Part shown: positions 43,091-62,810 of the stretch, in pieces | How the letters are laid out: each line of letters opens with the position of its first letter | How positions within the stretch are numbered: position 1 is the stretch's first letter | Source of the DNA: Podarcis liolepis | Lineage: Eukaryota | Assembly (NCBI GenBank): GCA_965112155.1 | Contig: OZ218103.1 | Length of the DNA: 64,000 nucleotides | Strand: one strand, 5' to 3' | Translations under genes and position numbers: made by a program | The notes under the pieces: model-generated | The model's database searches: none | What the model was told of the DNA's origin: nothing | Seen by the model: the letters and a program-made list of their open reading frames with translations, nothing else

Positions 43091-44390
43091 TAAATCCCCA
43101 CCCCAATATACTGCTCATTGCAACACTTTCCTTGGACTAATAATCTAACTTGCAAACTGGACTTCACTAAGTATAACTAAGATGGTACCAACAGACACCT
43201 CAGATATATAGAAAGTATTTCCTCATAAAAGAGAAAGTGAAGAATATACAAACTCTTAACCATCTTGCAGGGAAGCTAGCAGGAAATAAAGACATTGACA
43301 CATTTATAGTCCTTCCAGTTGCTGTGAAGAAAGAACTTAAGGAAAGGGACACTACAATTCCGGGGCAGGTTGACAGTTGAAAGACAGCAAAGAATTTCAG
43401 AGGGTTTTGCATCCCCTGAACATCAGGCCTGAATACTGCTCTCCACCTTATTCCGTGGAATGAGAGATGCTTACCATGCTGTATAGCAGACAAGAAAACA
43501 TCATTGTGTGTTCTGCACATGACCGAGAACCCATCCCAGATTCCCCTTTGTGTATAATGCACGCATCACCAGCTCCCTCAGGCACATACATCACAACCTT
43601 GAAGGCAAAGCCGTGGCGCACCTCACCAGATCACAGCACAGTAGGCAGCTTAGAACCACACTCTGACGAACACAATTCACAGGCATAAGGACAAGTGGGA
43701 GTCAAATACACCAGCCTGCTACACCAATCCGGGGAACAATGCAAGACAAAAGGGGCCTGCACACGATTCGCCGAATGCAAAGATAAAGAGGGGGGAAAGG
43801 ACAATGCATGCACAGCTGCTTTTAAGCCAGCGCATAAACGAACGGCATGCTTGGGGTTTGCTCCCGTGCACTTGCAAGCAGCTCACAAAGCACGGCGCAA
43901 TCACACAATGCAGCCACCTCCCTCCGACGCAGAACCCAGAGTACGGCAAAGCCCTGGGACGACCCTCGCTCGCTTTTTCTGCCAGATCGAGGAGAAACCC
44001 CACCAGGCGCCCCGCCCACCCGCCGGGTGCTCGGCAGACAGAAGGTCCCTGCAGATCGGGGTCACGAAGAGAGCGCAACGCCCTTTGCGATAACACGCGA
44101 GCGCACAATGCTCCCCGCCCCCGGGCAACGCGGGGCACCCGAGGACCGAGAGGGTGTGACTCCTGGCAGGACCAGGGCCAGCCCGGAGCGCGCAGCAGCA
44201 GCACCCGCCGGGCGAGCCCTTCCCCGCCCCAAGAGCACCCCGGCCACCCGCAGGCTGCCTCGGGGAGAGGCGCACGGAGACAGGCGGCATCTTAGGCCCC
44301 TGGCGCTTCGCCTGCAGAGCCCAAGTGGCAGCTCCTCCGGCAGCAAAGCCCGCGGGGCCCGCAGCTTGGTCTGCGCGCCGCCCGCCTTAC

Positions 44391-44428
44391 CTGCTGATCT
44401 TCTGCGCGAAGGCGCGGCGCTCGGCCAT
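44391..44428 (-). CDS. DOCK7: DOCK7 coding exon 1 (MAERRAFAQKIS-R, 38 nt)
   Basis: Strong Kozak accATGg at 44428 inside the CpG island; donor AG|GTAAGG at 44390. Confidence 0.96.
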
Positions 44429-44472
44429 GGTTGCTCAGGATCGACAAAAGCAAAAGCGCTTCCAGCTTCCCT

Positions 44473-44496
44473 CGCCGCCGCCGCCGCCGCCGCCGC
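44473..44496. repeat. (CGC)8 trinucleotide repeat, read as CGG-type in the DOCK7 5' UTR
   Basis: Direct reading: cgccgccgccgccgccgccgccgc, about 45 nt upstream of the DOCK7 ATG. Confidence 0.9.
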
Positions 44497-47400
44497 TGGA
44501 GAACAAGTCAAAGGAGCCAGGAATGGGCGCCGTAATGCTCAGGAGCGCCGCGCAGCCACACGGCGTTGCGCGTCCCCGCCCGCCGGTGCAAGGCCTCCCT
44601 TTCCAAGGGAAAAAAGGAGAATGCGCCTCTCGTCGCGTATATATGGCCCGGCCAAGGCAAACGGGAGGAGGAGAGGCTGAGGAGGGGTGGTCCCGCTCGC
44701 CCCCAAATCTCTCGCGGGCGGGGGAGGGGCTGGGATCCGGGCTCATCCCGCCTCGCGGAGGGGACGAGTCATCGAGGGGAAGGGAGGGCGCGCCTCCGCC
44801 CAGCTCCAGGGAAAGAGATGGGGCAAAGGGCGGGGGCAGAGCCGTGATTCCACTTCCCAAAGCTGGGAGCCTCCCTCTTGAATTCCTGACCGGGCTTTCG
44901 GGCTCCTGCTCCGCCCACAAGGAAGACGGAGGGAGGAAGAGATGCAGGTTTGTGGGGTTGTGGGAACCCGCGTCCGAAAAGAACCTGCGGAGGCGTGGAA
45001 GGAGGATTGAGGGGGGATCCTATCATCTTCTCGCCGTCGCCCGTCATTAAAACTGAAATGGTTGGTGCCTGGCGAGTCTTGTGTTATTTTTCCTAGTTGC
45101 ACGCTATCTCAGGTTTGGGGGTTTTAAGGCTGGAAACTTTAAAACAAGCAGGAATACTGAAGTTTCGTTGGTTGGTTTTTCGCCACTTTCTAAGCTGCGC
45201 CTCTTTTCGGAAGCGGCTTTGGTTTTGTGTCATAAGGGCGAGTGCTGCATAATCATAATACAGAGGGGGGAATTACCACGACGCACACTTCAAAATACCC
45301 TTCCCAGTTCCCTCTGCCACTTCCCCTTTCTCCGTAGCTTTGCTATTGACCCCACTTATGATAAACTTCTACTTGTTATTCCTGACTTTTCCCAAACCAC
45401 CCACCGCCTCTTCCTTACATGAAATCGTAGAGTTGGAAGGGGCCACTAGGGTCATCTAGTCCAACCCCCTAGCTCTCTTTCCTCGCCCGACTTTTCATGC
45501 TTTTCAAGCTTAGCCTACCATCGCTGAGGACCACGTGAAGTGTTTGGTTACCATTACAGTACCTCTTTGCAGCCTCCCTTCAGTGACTGAAGTCTGATAG
45601 AACAGAAAGTGAAAGGGCTCTCTTCTTTATTCCACCGTGGTATTAACTGCCTTCACATCCTTGCTTTCTCCAGAAAGCTGCCCTAGATAACAGAGAAGTT
45701 ATTGTTATTAAGGTTATATATTTATATTCTACCTTTCTTCCATTATGGAGCTCAAGGTGGTGTACATTGGGTTCCCAGGCAATTTCCGGTGCAAGCACTG
45801 ATCAGACCCAGGCCTGATTGGGGTCATTTTATTTTAGAATTATGTGATTTGAAGGGGGGAAACAGCCTTTAGGTTCCACCATAAATAGGACTAACAAATA
45901 CATGCTCTTCTTCATCACTATAAGGGAGAAAAAGGAAAACGGTAGGGGTTGTCCTGTCCCCAAAAATCAATGCAAAGGAATTATCACATTTACTGTCTAT
46001 AAATCAGTGGTACAGTTAGGGAATTTGGCCTTAATGTTCTTTATGGGTCCTTCTCTGGTAACACTTACTTTACAGTGTGGTAAGCCAGCCATTTGGGAAC
46101 CCCTTGCTTCCAGCTGTGCAGAAGGGGAGACAGGCGAGTACACTTGCACTGGACCTTGGAGGGCTAAGCCAGCTGGGGGCCTTGCCAAGGACTGGATGCT
46201 TTTTTGAGTTTATCACTTGAGTCCAACAGGACTCCCACCCTCAGCATCAGACAAGCTCTGTACAGGCCTGCCCTGCTCATTCTGCTATGTTGGGGCCCTG
46301 TACATGTGTCCCAAAGTTCTGCCCTGGTTGGCAGCATCACTGGCATTATCTGAAATGTCAGAGAGCCCACTCCACTGAAACCACAGAAATTCAGTAGCTG
46401 CCAGCATGGGCATAGCCAAGGGGAGAGCCTTCTGCCAACCTCGCAGTTGGAAAGCATGCCAGTGCAAGTAGATATATAGGTAAAACAATAGAAATACTTA
46501 AGTAACTGAACAATCAAGTCAGTTCTGCCCCCCCTAACAAAAGTCCTGCCCACCCCCCATGGCTGCCACATACAAGGCTCAGGATATCCCTGGAAGTTTA
46601 GAATGGTCCTACAGTTTAAAAGGATGGCAAGTAGCTTCGCAGAACAGCAGAAGTGCCTTGTCTTGAATTTTGAGGAGTATCTGGAATTGGTCACCGCAAG
46701 AGAGATGGTTATTGCCTGATCTTACATTATCTGGACAAACAACTGCAAAACTAGTATTCCTATATGTGACTTGTACGATTTGTTCAGCTTGTATAAGGTA
46801 GCTAGAGGTGCTTCTGATTGTAAAACAGAAGGTTACAATCTGCAGAAAACAACAGATGTTTATTCCATAATGTTATTCCACTATATGAAGTCCATATAAT
46901 AAACGCTAGGTCTCTGCAGTGTTACTTAGTTTATATATTTGATCTGGTAACAAATTTAAACTTTTTTTCATTAATTGTTAATTACTATTTCATATTCACA
47001 TTGAAATATCTCACATTTAAAATGTCAGTGCTCAGTTTTCATTAATAAATTGCTTTGAAATGTTGCTTATCTCATTCCCTCTGCTTTGTCATATCCTGTC
47101 TTTATTGCTGGGTTTCAGTCCTGCTTTGATTTGACTTGGTATTAACAGCACACACTGAATAATTCCATTAAAGCAGACAGTATTTCACATGGGGATAAAT
47201 GTCTGAAAAATCAAATTGCTAAAATATGTGGAGTTAGGGACAGGGCTGCCTTCGTTATTTGCTAGTATGAAGCACATATGATTTCAGTACTGTAATGCTG
47301 CCAACAATAAAACAAAAAACAGCTATTTCATGCAACACTGCAGTGACTCATTAACGTTGTGTTTATCAAGTATTTTGTCATACTTTGCTATGTATATATG

Positions 47401-54624: not shown

Positions 54625-55269
54625 CATACATAAAATATGAAAATGCACTTAATTTTAATACTTAACAGTCACAATGTATTCCTATTTAGAAAATGGATAT
54701 ACTGTATGTTAAGCTGGTAGTTGTTTGCACGGAGAGATAGGCCTACACAACGTTTGCCTGGCTACAGCTTAATCCTCATATAACTTACGGGCTGAAGCAA
54801 GCACTCTATGGCTAGTTGCAAAGTATTTTTAGTGTTGTCATTTGCTCTATTAGGAAAATACGCGGTCAAGTTAGAAGGAGCAGAATTTATTTTGTACAGT
54901 ATTCAGGGGGCACAGAGTGGCTGGGGAACCCAGCCAGATGGGCGGGGTATAAATATTACCATTACCATTATTCATTATCATTATTATTGGCCAAAGAAGA
55001 AAATTCTAGGAAACTGAGGTGTCCAACGGTCTCGTTTTCTCTGGGTCTGAACTACCAAAGTTCTTCAAACTTCGGAGACTACATCTCCCAGAGCGCACTT
55101 CTTTCTCAGCGCAGGGGCACCCTCTTACGCCACTGGAGCAGTGCATTCTGGGACTTGTAGTGTCTGGGCAGCTAGCAAATAAGAAGAGTCGCAGTTTTGA
55201 ATTCCCGCCCTCCCGCTCGCGCCGGTGGTGACCCTCTGCTGTGTAGGCAGATTTGGTTTCCTCCTCAGT

Positions 55270-55447
55270 CCCGGAAGCGGCGCCACTGGGGGATTCGTAA
55301 CGGCGCCGACTGGCGCTTATGGTAGCCGGAGTGGGTCAAAAGAGTCGGTGGTGAAGATCGGAAAGTTAAAAAAAAAGAAAAAGAGTTTTAAAACAGGAGG
55401 GCCTTCCCCCTCCCCTTTCTCGCCTCCTTGTGACTCCGGCGTCCTCG
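55270..55447 (+). other. ATG4C: ATG4C non-coding exon 1 (start approximate)
   Basis: Donor TCG|GTGAGC at 55448 inside the CpG-rich promoter region; exon 2 carries the start codon, as remembered for mammalian ATG4C. Confidence 0.6.
55319..55354 (+). other. Short uORF1 in ATG4C exon 1 (MVAGVGQKSRW*)
   Basis: ATG 55319 to TGA 55354. Only in the mRNA if the TSS lies upstream of 55319. Confidence 0.45.
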
Positions 55448-55475
55448 GTGAGCGCGAACTTTAGGGGTCGGGTTG

Positions 55476-55519
55476 GGGAAAGGAGGACTTCGGGTTCGGG
55501 AAAGGAGGACTTCGGGTTC
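55476..55519 (+). repeat. Perfect 22-bp tandem duplication GGGAAAGGAGGACTTCGGGTTC x2
   Basis: Direct reading, just 3' of the ATG4C exon 1 donor. Confidence 0.9.
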
Positions 55520-58500
55520 CTCGGGGCCGCTTTCAGTGGGACAAGCATTTCAAGGCAGGGGGACCCTGATGTGCCTTGGGGGTTCCTCTGGAAATCCTTT
55601 GGGGTTTGGGAACGGACGGGGAGCAGCCTTGTCTTGTTGAAGAAGGAGGGGATTTTTTAAATGGGACGTTGAGAGACATACACAGCCATCTCTTCCTATA
55701 TTACCCAGTGATTTTGGGAAATAACGGCCTCTGCTTTTTGAGCTTTATCTAGAGGTTTTGCAATAAGGGCACATCTTGGGTCGTGGCAAAAAAGGGACGT
55801 CCCTGAATAAGGTTTCCGCTCGCAAATTTATCTCGTCCCACTTCCCTCAGTTGCTCCATCTGGGTGCTGAGATGCCACAGATTACCATTTTGGTCTGACA
55901 TCTGTCCAAACAAGGCGTTTCAGGCTACAGCTGTGTAGAGAACTTAGCATTTCAGGGTTCGTTCGTTCGTTTGTTTTTACTTATTTACTCTAAGCCACCA
56001 AAGCAACTTTGTTATAGGGTGGCATACAAATGTCATACATAAGTAATAAAATCCCATTCAGTTTGGTTGCTTATTGATACTTAGGCTGCAGCCCTGTACA
56101 TCTCGGCACATGAGGAACTCGCTTGGAGTTCAGTGGGTGTTACTTCCAGGTATGTGGGTACAGGATTGTCAACTTAGTGGTTTTTTAAACAGCCTTCTAA
56201 AAGAAACAGTGTGAATGTGTGCCAACCCCATTTAGGACACCTTGGCAGTGACAGTGCTCTTTTTCATCTCCTGTTAAAGGTATCAATTTATTTATTTACT
56301 AATGGCTCAGGTCAGTATGAGGTGAGAATAACCTCTTGTCTTCAGTAAAATCTAAATTGGTTAAAGCTACCTCAGGATAAATTTGTCCTGCTTAATATAG
56401 GCATCCCCATCAGACCAGCGTTGCACACCCTTTTGTACTTTTTTTTCTCATGATCTGTATAAATATAGATAAAAATATAGATAAAAACAACACCAAACAC
56501 ACCTACTTATTTCTCTGGCATTTATCCTGAGTCTTTCCCTTCTACATCTAGCCCCAATATTTCTCCTTAACACACACATTCATTCCCCAAGAGAAACCGC
56601 TGTCCTCTAAGCTTTCTCCTTATTCTCCATGATCTTAGCCTGCAAATGATCCAGTGCTTTCAAACAACAGTCTTGGAAGCAGCTTTGGGTTTTCTGGTAC
56701 AGTATCTGAATAAAAATAAGCTTACAGTTTTTGGCTAGCCCTGGTAGCCAAGCCAAAATTGTGGTTTTAAGGACCCTTCCCCTTTCCTTGTCACTTACTT
56801 CACCCTGCGCCCCTGCACATAGTCAAGGACTGTCTTCTTTTGTCCCTCCCTAGCTTCAAATCTGGAGCTCAAAAGAGCTGCAAGGAGTTGCGGGTTTGGC
56901 TGCTGTATCATACATGATGCCTAGGCATTAAGGAAACTCTTGCTTCACTTTCTTGCTGAAAAGAGGGAAGCGTTCCATTGTTAGCCACTACAGGCTTGTT
57001 TCCAATTCTCCAAAACATTGTTGGAAGAGTTGGAAACATTATGCACAAAACCACCCAAATGAATTTAGAATCTTGCTGACTGTCATTAGTATGACAATTG
57101 AATAAGCTCTAATGCAGTTTCCTATGTTGTCTCAATAATTTATATTTTGTATGTTCCATATGGGAAGTGTTCCAAGAGTGCTTTGGATTGATAGCTTCTT
57201 GTTGCATAAGAAATAAAAATAGTGTGCTTTGAGATTCAATTAGGGCAGGGCTAGATAATGTAATGTAATCTAATGCCCTCTAGATGTTGTTGGATTCAAA
57301 ATCCCATCATTCCTGGCCATCGGCCATGCTTGGGGCTGACAACAGGGGTATAAATAATAAAACTGTTGTTATTATTCTTCACATCTGGAGGGCACAATAT
57401 TGGTGACCCTTGATAGGTGCTTGGGCTTATTTTATTCCTGAAATAGCCAGGGAAAACTTTCAGAGTTGCAGGTCAATTTTAGCTTTACAAATGTCCTTGA
57501 TCTTAAAAAGGCAATGAAAGAAATCAGCCCCCCAGAAGCTGCTATTCTTTAGCCATTTACACTGACATAAAATCTGATGGAGCATATGCAAACTTATCCC
57601 TTTCTGAAGTTATGTAAAAACAACCTGTGATTGTTAAAATGAATGCTGATACACTTATTTCCATTCAGCATTGTTTATGTAATGAGATGTCTGTTCAAAA
57701 TTAAGTACTAATCTTGTGAAGAAATTCTTGCTTTGCTAACCTTGCTTTGTTTGCTTTGCTGTTTTCCAATGCAAATATTTACAGAAGTAGAAAGGAAGGT
57801 TAACACTCAACAATAGTTCCTCCATCCATATCCATCCAAAATCTATATCGCAGCAATATCGTTAGTAGCAGCAAAAAGACAAAGGAATAAATTAATATAG
57901 TATGTGAACAAGCAAATAGAAACCTGACGTATTATGGTCATTATATAATAACAAACAATGTGATCCATATACAAGCCAGTGAAATTATTTAAACAGTACA
58001 CTACAAATAGAAAAATTCCCCAATCAATTTGGAGTAAGATTTCCATGATTAAAACTCATTTCATGCTTTTTCAACTAACAGAGAGCATGTATGAATGGCA
58101 GCCCTCATTGCCTTCATTCTTTGGTGTTTTTCTTCCTTTCTCATTAATGTCAGTACAATAGACCCAGAAAACATATTATTAAATATATATTTTTTAAATC
58201 ACCCACTCTATGATATAGAATGTATAATGTAAGGCCACTATACATAATGTAATTGAAATACCTGTTAAGTTCTGTTAAATGCTTTCATGGTAATCTTACA
58301 TCAAACATCCAATATTATATTTCTTGACTTGGCACAGTATTTGGTGACATTTTGGTTAGCCTGTTAAAGGTATTGCCTTAATACAGATTTTGATTTTTTT
58401 TTAATGAGCCAACACATCTGACCTTTACTTGTATTCTTCATTTTATAATTGAAAGCCATGCAACGTATAAATTTTCTAGTGAATTTTTAAAGTAGCTCTT

Positions 58501-59090
58501 TTGCAAGAATAATCTAACATATTACAGGAGACTTGGTTTTGGTAATTTCTTTTTAAGCATACTCCTCTTTTTGTTTGCAACCCAGATTTCTTCCCATGTA
58601 ATACATTTTGGACTGGGATAGAACCCAACTCTCTTAAATAGAGCATTAATATTCATGAGCCCAGAGTCCTGCTTCTGAACAGAATAGACATAATATAAAA
58701 CTGTGTCCCTTTTGCAGCAATTCAAATATTTTTCTCTGTCTTCCAATTAGTGTTTAGGTGTTCTCAGATGTACACCAATGTAGTCTATGTACACAGGACA
58801 GTTTACTGTGAAATAGAGAGCATTTGGAGGACATTATGTTTTATTTAGCGTTGGATGATAATTTTACTGTTGTATATTTGGAATAAAATGTTTTTATTAT
58901 TTATTCATAGAAGTTACAATTGCTTTTCTCTCTGCAAGTGGAGGCTTCTGAGATTTTATTGCTCTTCCTAGTCACAATATGTTTAACCACCTAACAACAC
59001 AAGCATGCTTAGCTATGCCCTGAGTGTTCATGGATGTGTTTATTCCTTTTCCTTTTGCAGTAGCACAGATTAGTGTCTTTTGAGACAGTG

Positions 59091-59138
59091 ATGGCTTTTC
59101 CTCTTCATTCTGAACATGGAGGCCGCAGGGACAGATGA
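59091..59138 (+). other. Overlapping out-of-frame uORF in ATG4C exon 2 (MAFPLHSEHGGRRDR*)
   Basis: gtgATGg strong Kozak, 25 nt upstream of the main ATG; TGA at 59136-59138 inside the CDS. Confidence 0.7.
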
Positions 59139-59191
59139 AGTAGAGAAAATAAAATCAAAGTTTATGTCTGCATGGCATAATATGAAATACA
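59116..59191 (+). CDS. ATG4C: ATG4C first coding exon (exon 2; exon starts 59061) MEAAGTDEVEKIKSKFMSAWHNMKY-S
   Basis: Acceptor ttttgcag| at 59060, Kozak aacATGg, donor |gtaagt at 59192; matches the ATG4C N-terminus. Confidence 0.95.
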
Positions 59192-61242
59192 GTAAGTGAA
59201 ACGCGATAAATTGCATTGCTTAAAACAATTAATGGAAGAATGCAACCTCATCTTTGAAAATGGATTGTGCATTGTCTCAAATGACTGAAGCTGGTTTGCT
59301 GTTCCCAGTTAATGTTAACTGTTGTTAGTGCTGGTGCAGATGTAAAGCTAATACTACAAGGGAAGGAAGTGGGAATTTGCACAACAGAGAGCATGAGTCG
59401 TTTTTTTGAACTCTGAGGCCCAGTGGACTCATTCGGATGTAATGCCTAAGCCATTTCGTATTATGTGAATGAGACTTGGGTTTGTCAACTTCCTCCCCAT
59501 CTCTCCTCTCTCAGTGCAACTGCAAAAAGGAGATCAGAAGCATTCACTTCTATTTTTAGCTAACCTTTGTTTAGCATTATGTCCAAAGCAAACTATTTTA
59601 CCTATGGTTTATGTAAACAAGCCAGCTTTAAGCCATGGTTTATGAAGTTGGCTTGTTTTCATAAACCATAGATAAAGTTTAACCACAGTGTCGGGTTTGG
59701 GTGTAATGCTAGACTGCCATCGATTGAAAAGAGAGCTTTTGATCTCATTGTGGCAGTGTCAGAGGAGGAAATACATGAACCACAGTTTAGTACTGTTTCT
59801 GAATCAAGCCAGTGAGATAGCAATTAGGGTATGTTTAGTGCTAATGAAACATTGTTGCTTTGTCCTTGCTTAAGATCTCAACTGTACGGTTAAAACATAG
59901 TTTAGCTGAGTAGTCTTCAACCTTTTCAGACCCAGTGCCCACTTTCAACCCAAATATGTACATGGGAAATAATTTCTTAATTTTTTTACCATATATTTGT
60001 ATGGTGGTAGTATGACCTGTCTTAAATCAGGCCATGACCTGGTGATCGGTCCCAGCTGAAGACTGATGATTTAGCTTGTGAAACCCAACCTTTCCCTTGG
60101 AGGGCATCTGTAGATAGACCTACTTGTCATCTTGCAGGTTGGGAGGTTGATGACGTATGAAACTGCAATAGCCATGATTAAGAAAGTGGCTGTGTGATTT
60201 CTCCATTAGTTGACAAATTTTTCCTTCTAGAAATTTCTGCACCTCTTTGGACACCTACTCCTTTGTCACTATTAAAAGAATCACTTGCACTTAAATAGTC
60301 AGCAATAGCTGGGGATAAATCAGTGTATTTCCCCATTCTGTAAATTCCCTTTAATCAGATATCTATGACAGATACAAATCTATTCTGATATCATAGTCCA
60401 CGAGGAAGATGCTAGAAAAGGGGAAGAAGAGGATAGCTTGAGAAAAGAAAATATTTATGAAACTTTCTGCAGAAATAGCCAAAAGAGCAACTGTTGCTTT
60501 GTAGTTCCTAATAATTAAAGCTTAAAGAAAGCTTAAAAGATTCTACTAGGTTTTTGTCAGGTTTCTGCTCTCAGTAAAGAGAAACTCAAAAGACATAACT
60601 ATTTGAAGACTTTTTTTAAAAAAAACCCCACACCAGTCTTTAATTCTGTTGCTGTTTAATTTTTATTGTTTGCCCTGGATTTCTGGTCCCTATTTTTAAT
60701 GTGCTTTTAGCCTTCAATCTAGCTGTTTTTCAGCCCCATTTAGCCTTTCCTTCCTCTATGCGAGGAGCAGATCAGGGCTGAGTCAGTGTGAGCACCCCCT
60801 GCCCACAAGTTCCCATGACCATGTTGAGGACTGAATATGTTTTTGTATTTGATTGCTTTGAGTGTTGCCTTTCAGAGGGATGAAATGGGCTGGATAGAAA
60901 TGTTGTATGAATGTTTATTTATTTGAAACATTTATATACTACCTGTATCAAACAAGATCGGATTTATTTCTCAATACTGTGTTTCCACTAGTTGTTACTG
61001 CTGCTTGGAAAGTGAAACTTTCTATGTATGCTTGTTTTTAAAGTGCAGACATCAACATAAACTATTTAACAAATTTAACATAGGAATAGCCTAAACCCTA
61101 TTTGCGTTGTACAAAGCAGAGGAACTTGTTTTTAATAAAAGCTGAGACTGCTCATTTTCTTCCTTGCTTTCTGTGAACTTCATTAAAGTTGGCCTGGAGA
61201 TCATTTCTAAATGTCTTACTTTGCTTTTCTTCTTCTTTATAG

Positions 61243-62703: not shown

Positions 62704-62810
62704 GCAAGTTCCCCAGATTTTTGACCTATTCAGTTAACTTTTAGTTTTTTATTTGAGGGAATAGGTAACCAAAGGAATTGGGCCATGTGTGCTTATGAGA
62801 ATGAAGTGTG

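Follow-up and report, generated by a model that had tools for sequence, protein, structure and literature searches.

A conserved out-of-frame upstream start overlapping the ATG4C coding sequence in a lizard and a bird probably acts as a constitutive repressor

In the ATF4 mRNA, a first upstream open reading frame (uORF1) of 3 codons plus stop is followed by a uORF2 of 59 codons plus stop, 27 codons of which overlap the coding sequence (CDS), with start codons in favourable contexts (PMC12839439, PMC11058473, accessible sections). The uORF2 start lies about 99 nt (about 33 codons) upstream of the ATF4 main start. Leaders of this general kind are common, since 1,161 of 7,685 transcripts in HeLa cells (~15%) carry a uORF together with an overlapping ORF, and as a group they showed no response to tunicamycin (bioRxiv 10.64898/2026.08.25.746704). 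The presence of a uORF was likewise found to be a poor predictor of the response (Andreev 2015, PMC4383229). According to the available part of the same preprint, most of the strong overlapping ORFs assayed gave no induction, the RNFT1 reporter being one example, and a single overlapping ORF can be sufficient for induction in DCP2, which requires a conserved inhibitory 3' part of that ORF. For autophagy genes, a review (PMC10743681, in part) describes uORFs suppressing the translation of ATG mRNAs and credits Yang et al. 2023 (Autophagy 19:457) with candidate uORFs in 32 ATG genes. The lizard leader analysed here resembles the latter elements, and it had been predicted from the sequence to work as an ATF4-like switch.

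The analysed stretch of Podarcis liolepis DNA (64,000 nucleotides, hereafter the window) contains ATG4C, which was identified using exon 4 as a query matching named ATG4C proteins of squamates, birds, turtles and mammals. Among 254 proteins fetched in ATG4C searches, 202 start at the equivalent Met and 17 have extensions, with the remaining 35 being fragments, other isoforms or unrelated proteins. The first exon of the gene sits within a CpG-island-like stretch. An ATG4 paralogue at G000:C18:10964740-10970673, with 40-70% identity in the matched exons, is presumably ATG4D. The coordinates of the leader features are collected in Table 1.

Table 1. Features of the ATG4C leader in the lizard window and of its spliced copy elsewhere in the genome
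Feature	Position	Strand	Description
Exon 1, non-coding	55249..55447	+	5' end from tagged reads; some contigs extend to 55212-55215
uORF1	55319..55354	+	ATG at 55319, 11 codons + TGA; C at -3, G at +4
Intron 1 (GT..AG)	55448..59060	+	joint in 8/8 runs examined
Exon 2	59061..59191	+	55 nt of leader, then the first 25 ATG4C codons
uORF2, out of frame, overlapping the CDS	59091..59138	+	15 codons + TAG; G at -3, G at +4
Main ATG of ATG4C	59116..59118	+	A at -3, G at +4
Leader copy (L002)	about 1425-1591; G000:C12 near 35,050,250-35,050,415	minus	exon 1 spliced onto the beginning of exon 2

Transcript evidence came from close relatives of the lizard (organisms A and B, and not label C, whose DNA is identical) at low depth, with the RNA status of the contig runs being an assumed label and the raw RNA runs chosen by species label. 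The splice 55447|59061 was present in all eight RNA or RNA-like runs examined (24 listed), both in reads (X21, 3; X23, 1; X24, 3; X22, 5) and in contigs (X1, X6, X13 and X14). Six reads in X22 have 23 loose letters joined at 55249, which consist of the Smart-seq3 tag, an 8-letter UMI and a run of G, as in the template-switch layout of that method (bioRxiv 10.1101/817924, in part). These reads, possibly derived from few molecules, mark a cDNA 5' end at 55249, 70 nt 5' of uORF1. Leader contigs begin at 55212, 55215 and 55278, and the spliced X6 contig begins only near 55418, leaving uORF1 uncovered; contig starts cannot show where transcripts start. A transcription start 3' of 55319 was rejected, as no read pile-up was listed there and 55249 was the sole tagged 5' end found. 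Similarly, the eight runs contained no alternative exon-2 acceptor, at a shallow depth at which rare forms would escape, and an acceptor skipping 59091 was rejected because 55447|59061 was the only joint listed in them. Some reads of X21 (2) and X22 (4) run from 55437 into exon 2 across two intervening letters, as expected if organism A has an allele lacking 7 nt at the 3' edge of exon 1 (window 55438-55444).

The spliced leader has just two upstream ATGs, those of uORF1 and uORF2. The uORF1 stop is separated from the uORF2 ATG by 123 nt, and the uORF2 ATG is located 30 nt from the exon-2 acceptor and 25 nt upstream of the main ATG, giving an overlap of 23 nt between uORF2 and the CDS. The original prediction was accurate in this anatomy: its uORF coordinates, gap, distance and overlap all match the sequence, the strong Kozak context of uORF2 and the weak -3 base of uORF1 are seen, uORF1 lies downstream of the tagged 5' end and hence in the mRNA, and the spliced leader includes 59091. 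Of the three outcomes set beforehand as counter-evidence, two (a downstream transcription start and a different acceptor) were not observed in the joint reads or at the 5' end at 55249. Both uORFs lie inside the mature mRNA, and uORF2 extends out of frame into the CDS, as in ATF4-type leaders; as a good-context out-of-frame AUG with its stop within the CDS, uORF2 also has the layout of a repressive overlapping uORF. The layout alone is not rare: when the 254-nt leader was shuffled 3000 times with its dinucleotides preserved, a uORF and then an overlapping ORF arose in 11% of cases, and in 2% with a strong context. A structured RNA element in the leader was rejected, with no Rfam match in 55000-59300 and a folding energy (-95.8) no better than that of shuffles (-95.3 +/- 5.8).

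We propose, with a probability of about 0.6, that the uORF2 ATG is a conserved constitutive repressive upstream start passed by leaky scanning, which steadily damps ATG4C and involves no stress switch. This start would capture many scanning ribosomes under all conditions, and the two strong ATGs 25 nt apart would compete, with ATG4C made mainly by ribosomes leaking past the first of them. Ribosomes translating an overlapping ORF are unable to restart at the main start, and those using uORF2 could not restart on ATG4C since its frame runs past the main ATG in both lizard and bird. The net effect would be a steadily lowered ATG4C output, and basal repression of the lizard gene by uORF2 is plausible; for the lizard, we infer both that initiation occurs at this second upstream ATG and how strongly it represses. 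The arrangement is similar to constitutively repressive vertebrate uORFs and overlapping ORFs, in which a strong-context out-of-frame ATG near the main start is bypassed by leaky scanning alone, and mammalian ATG4C orthologues share with these the absence of induction by the integrated stress response. It differs from them in that translation of uORF2 and repression in the lizard are predicted, and in that lizard and bird have an overlap that human and mouse lack.

The start of uORF2 is conserved in a bird. One metagenome contig holding bird ATG4C (L003) is identical to the lizard in the acceptor, the ATG at -25, the G-3/G+4 context, the frame, the length of 15 codons and the position of the stop. 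The encoded peptides match in 7 of 15 residues and differ in the other eight, and residue 6 is changed from H to E in organism B, so that conservation seems to concern the start and not the peptide; a conserved uORF2 peptide was rejected on these grounds. Lizard and bird share 39/55 positions of the exon-2 leader and 37/65 four-fold sites, and the probability of retaining the ATG by chance is 0.18-0.32 (0.06-0.15 with G-3 and G+4), which makes its retention in the bird suggestive only. The organism B contigs also keep this ATG, with the sole two exon-2 differences at 59106 and 59108.

A spliced copy of ~165 nt of the ATG4C leader on another contig of the lizard genome (L002, Table 1) has the identical junction, which is DNA evidence for the splice that does not depend on the reads, as well as the uORF2 ATG, and its exon-2 part is 42/46 identical. 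It is likely older than the change at 59106, because it has the letter of the bird and organism B at this position. The copy is decayed and holds only the 5' leader, ending just before the main ATG, which is odd for a processed fragment, and the genome search found no coding ATG4C retrocopy. Predicted proteins of two songbirds (RW and QW) and one marsupial (GW) extend through this region in the main frame and retain a Trp whose codon supplies the TG+G of the uORF2 start; the residue before it (R, Q or G) is compatible with the A of ATG without proving it. Protein searches revealed no new N-terminal read-through proteins, and pattern scans for more outgroup DNA returned one metagenome locus and none in prokaryote genomes. 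The ATG4C start region is not frozen, as in-frame alternative starts arise repeatedly: the bird contig has an extra in-frame ATG at -6, two codons 5' of the main start, and 13 snake proteins (P0007, P0011, P0012, P0015, P0208, P0210-P0214 and P0216-P0218) have in their annotation an additional Met in frame, four codons before the main start (-12).

In human, ATG4C has a translated uORF of 36 nt (11 codons, chr1:63,269,419-63,269,455), which is conserved in mouse with a Ka/Ks of 0.66 (Ji 2015, PMC4739776). This uORF begins 30 nt past the start of the exon-2 block (63,269,389), the same offset as in the lizard and the bird, and from this we infer that the human and mouse uORF is orthologous to uORF2; the accessible table of Ji 2015 gives positions without its start codon. 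The same source (in part) classes it as a plain uORF, so that in placental mammals it terminates ahead of the CDS and the overlap found in the lizard and the bird is absent in human and mouse. The uORF2 start is probably old, being kept in a bird and, on the strength of the shared offset, in mammals. Thus, conservation of the out-of-frame ATG across squamates, birds and mammals, which the original prediction had put forward for checking, was observed in organism B and the bird and is probable for mammals.

The human basal footprint/mRNA ratio of ATG4C was 0.38 compared to a median of 1.14, with 3 of 35 reference genes lower and ATF4 at 0.075; a low ratio also has other possible causes. A list of uORFs whose translation exceeds that of their CDS more than 3-fold includes ATF4 but not ATG4C. 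A constitutive repressive start is favoured by the retention of uORF2 in the bird, the leader copy and organism B, by the translated human and mouse uORF, by the low human basal ratio and by the lack of stress induction; the weak two-species retention, the human uORF without CDS overlap and the absence of ATG4C from this list count against it. The absence from the list, together with the proportion of shuffles reproducing the layout, the frequency of both ORF types in HeLa transcripts and an exon-2 leader that is already 39/55 identical in the bird, would also agree with both upstream ATGs being tolerated and near-neutral, with little effect on ATG4C output. We consider this unlikely in view of the strong context kept in the bird, the equal-offset uORF translated in human and mouse, and the retention in the leader copy.

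Stress responses of the mammalian orthologues were available in three published data sets, and none of them showed a rise in translation on eIF2-alpha phosphorylation. In arsenite-treated HEK293T cells, the translation efficiency (TE) of ATG4C changed by a factor of 0.2 (Z 0.23), in line with the median drop of 5.4-fold, with ATF4 at Z 8.16. In tunicamycin-treated HEK293T cells (PMC4341466), the log2 TE change was -0.27 for ATG4C (reference SD 0.27) and +2.63 for ATF4, normalised to 35 of 59 genes from part 1 of a 10,943-row table, namely those with at least 300 mRNA reads in one untreated sample; ATG4C is also absent from the changed-gene list in the available part of this source. In mouse ES cells carrying eIF2-alpha A/A (our reading of KI, that is S51A, in PMC10962698, in part) compared to wild type, TE of Atg4c did not fall (+0.52, padj 0.62, and +0.46, padj 0.92), and that of Atf4 changed by -0.95 (padj 0.029) and -0.62 (padj 0.31). 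Given the modest counts for ATG4C and the different leader in mammals, these results lower the case for a switch in the lizard without closing it, and they are no strict refutation since uORF and CDS do not overlap in mammals. For starvation, Atg4c was absent from the supplements of PMC12476630 and the main text of PMC7367890; 11 of 23 supplement files of PMC12221301 searched contained no ATG4C row, and the accessible part of bioRxiv 10.64898/2026.08.25.746704 does not mention the gene.

The data found covered treatments other than amino-acid starvation, and DCP2 provides a precedent for induction through one overlapping ORF, so uORF2 alone might be regulated by another route, such as DCP2-like stalling, a shift in leaky scanning, factors restricted to certain tissues, or starvation signalling that does not pass through eIF2-alpha. 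This appears improbable given that the uORF2 peptide varies where DCP2 depends on a conserved part of its ORF, that the leader folds no better than shuffles, and that most strong overlapping ORFs assayed were not induced.

Compared to ATF4 and ATF5, the lizard leader has the same order of a short uORF followed by an out-of-frame ORF overlapping the main start, and the gap between its uORFs is of a similar scale to that of ATF4 (123 versus about 90 nt). In contrast to ATF4, uORF1 is 11 codons long in a weak context instead of 3 codons in a favourable one, uORF2 has 15 codons instead of 59 with an overlap of 23 nt instead of 27 codons, the window for bypassing uORF2 is 25 nt instead of about 99, and the mammalian orthologues are not induced. 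A toy model of reinitiation, which is illustrative only because its rates of leakage and reinitiation were assumed, gave at most 1.0-1.3 fold induction for the lizard spacing when uORF1 was leaky and 1.0-1.8 fold when it was strong, compared to 1.3-4.2 fold for the ATF4 spacing. With regard to uORF1, contig X13 of organism B has it intact, its ATG reads ATA in the leader copy (which could be copy decay), the bird contig apparently stops short of exon 1, and the exon-1 uORFs in human are 38 or 54 codons long, with their stops in exon 2 (Ji 2015, PMC4739776, in part). In the sequences compared, an intact uORF1 was seen in a close relative, and this uORF is probably incidental or adds a little extra repression.

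The predicted induction of ATG4C on eIF2-alpha phosphorylation is therefore unsupported, with flat human and mouse orthologues in all three data sets, and it is also undercut by a layout that is common and a poor predictor and by a uORF1 length, context and 25-nt window unlike those of ATF4. Despite the order of the ORFs with uORF1 inside the mRNA, the overlap common to lizard and bird, and the fasting phenotypes of Atg4c-null mice (PMC10549197, in part), delayed reinitiation, in which uORF1 is translated and rescanning ribosomes skip uORF2 only at low ternary complex, is very unlikely even as a reptile- or bird-specific mechanism, given the uninduced mammalian orthologues, the uORF1 and window differences from ATF4, the low maximal induction in the toy model with its assumed parameters, and the divergent uORF1 in the leader copy and human. 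Equally remote is the broader proposal that the reptile and bird leader forms a starvation- or stress-gated switch for this autophagy protease, lost in placental mammals once the uORF no longer overlapped the CDS.

The lizard uORF2 start is real and probably an amniote-wide repressive element of an ordinary kind. None of the papers covered by the literature search named a uORF of ATG4C, but the one in human is already catalogued (Ji 2015, PMC4739776), and ATG4C may already be named in the list of Yang et al. 2023. The importance of the finding is modest: ATG4C joins the genes with an apparently amniote-wide upstream start beside the main start. This provides a handle on the dosing of a little-studied ATG4 protease, and variants removing the human uORF are predicted to raise ATG4C. 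A stress switch, if true in reptiles and birds, would connect the integrated stress response with ATG8 processing in a new and direct way.

Several other features of the locus were observed. Within intron 1, the window segment 58799-58970 is identical to the bird contig in 137 of 174 positions, above the level of the four-fold sites, and shows no Rfam match and no exon joints; it is possibly a splicing or transcription element, or a rare alternative exon. A second, stronger CpG-island-like stretch (window 43501-45000), about 10 kb 5' of ATG4C exon 1, is probably the promoter of a neighbouring gene. Exon 4 apparently has a GC donor (window 62704-62705, inferred from the protein) where the bird contig has GT.
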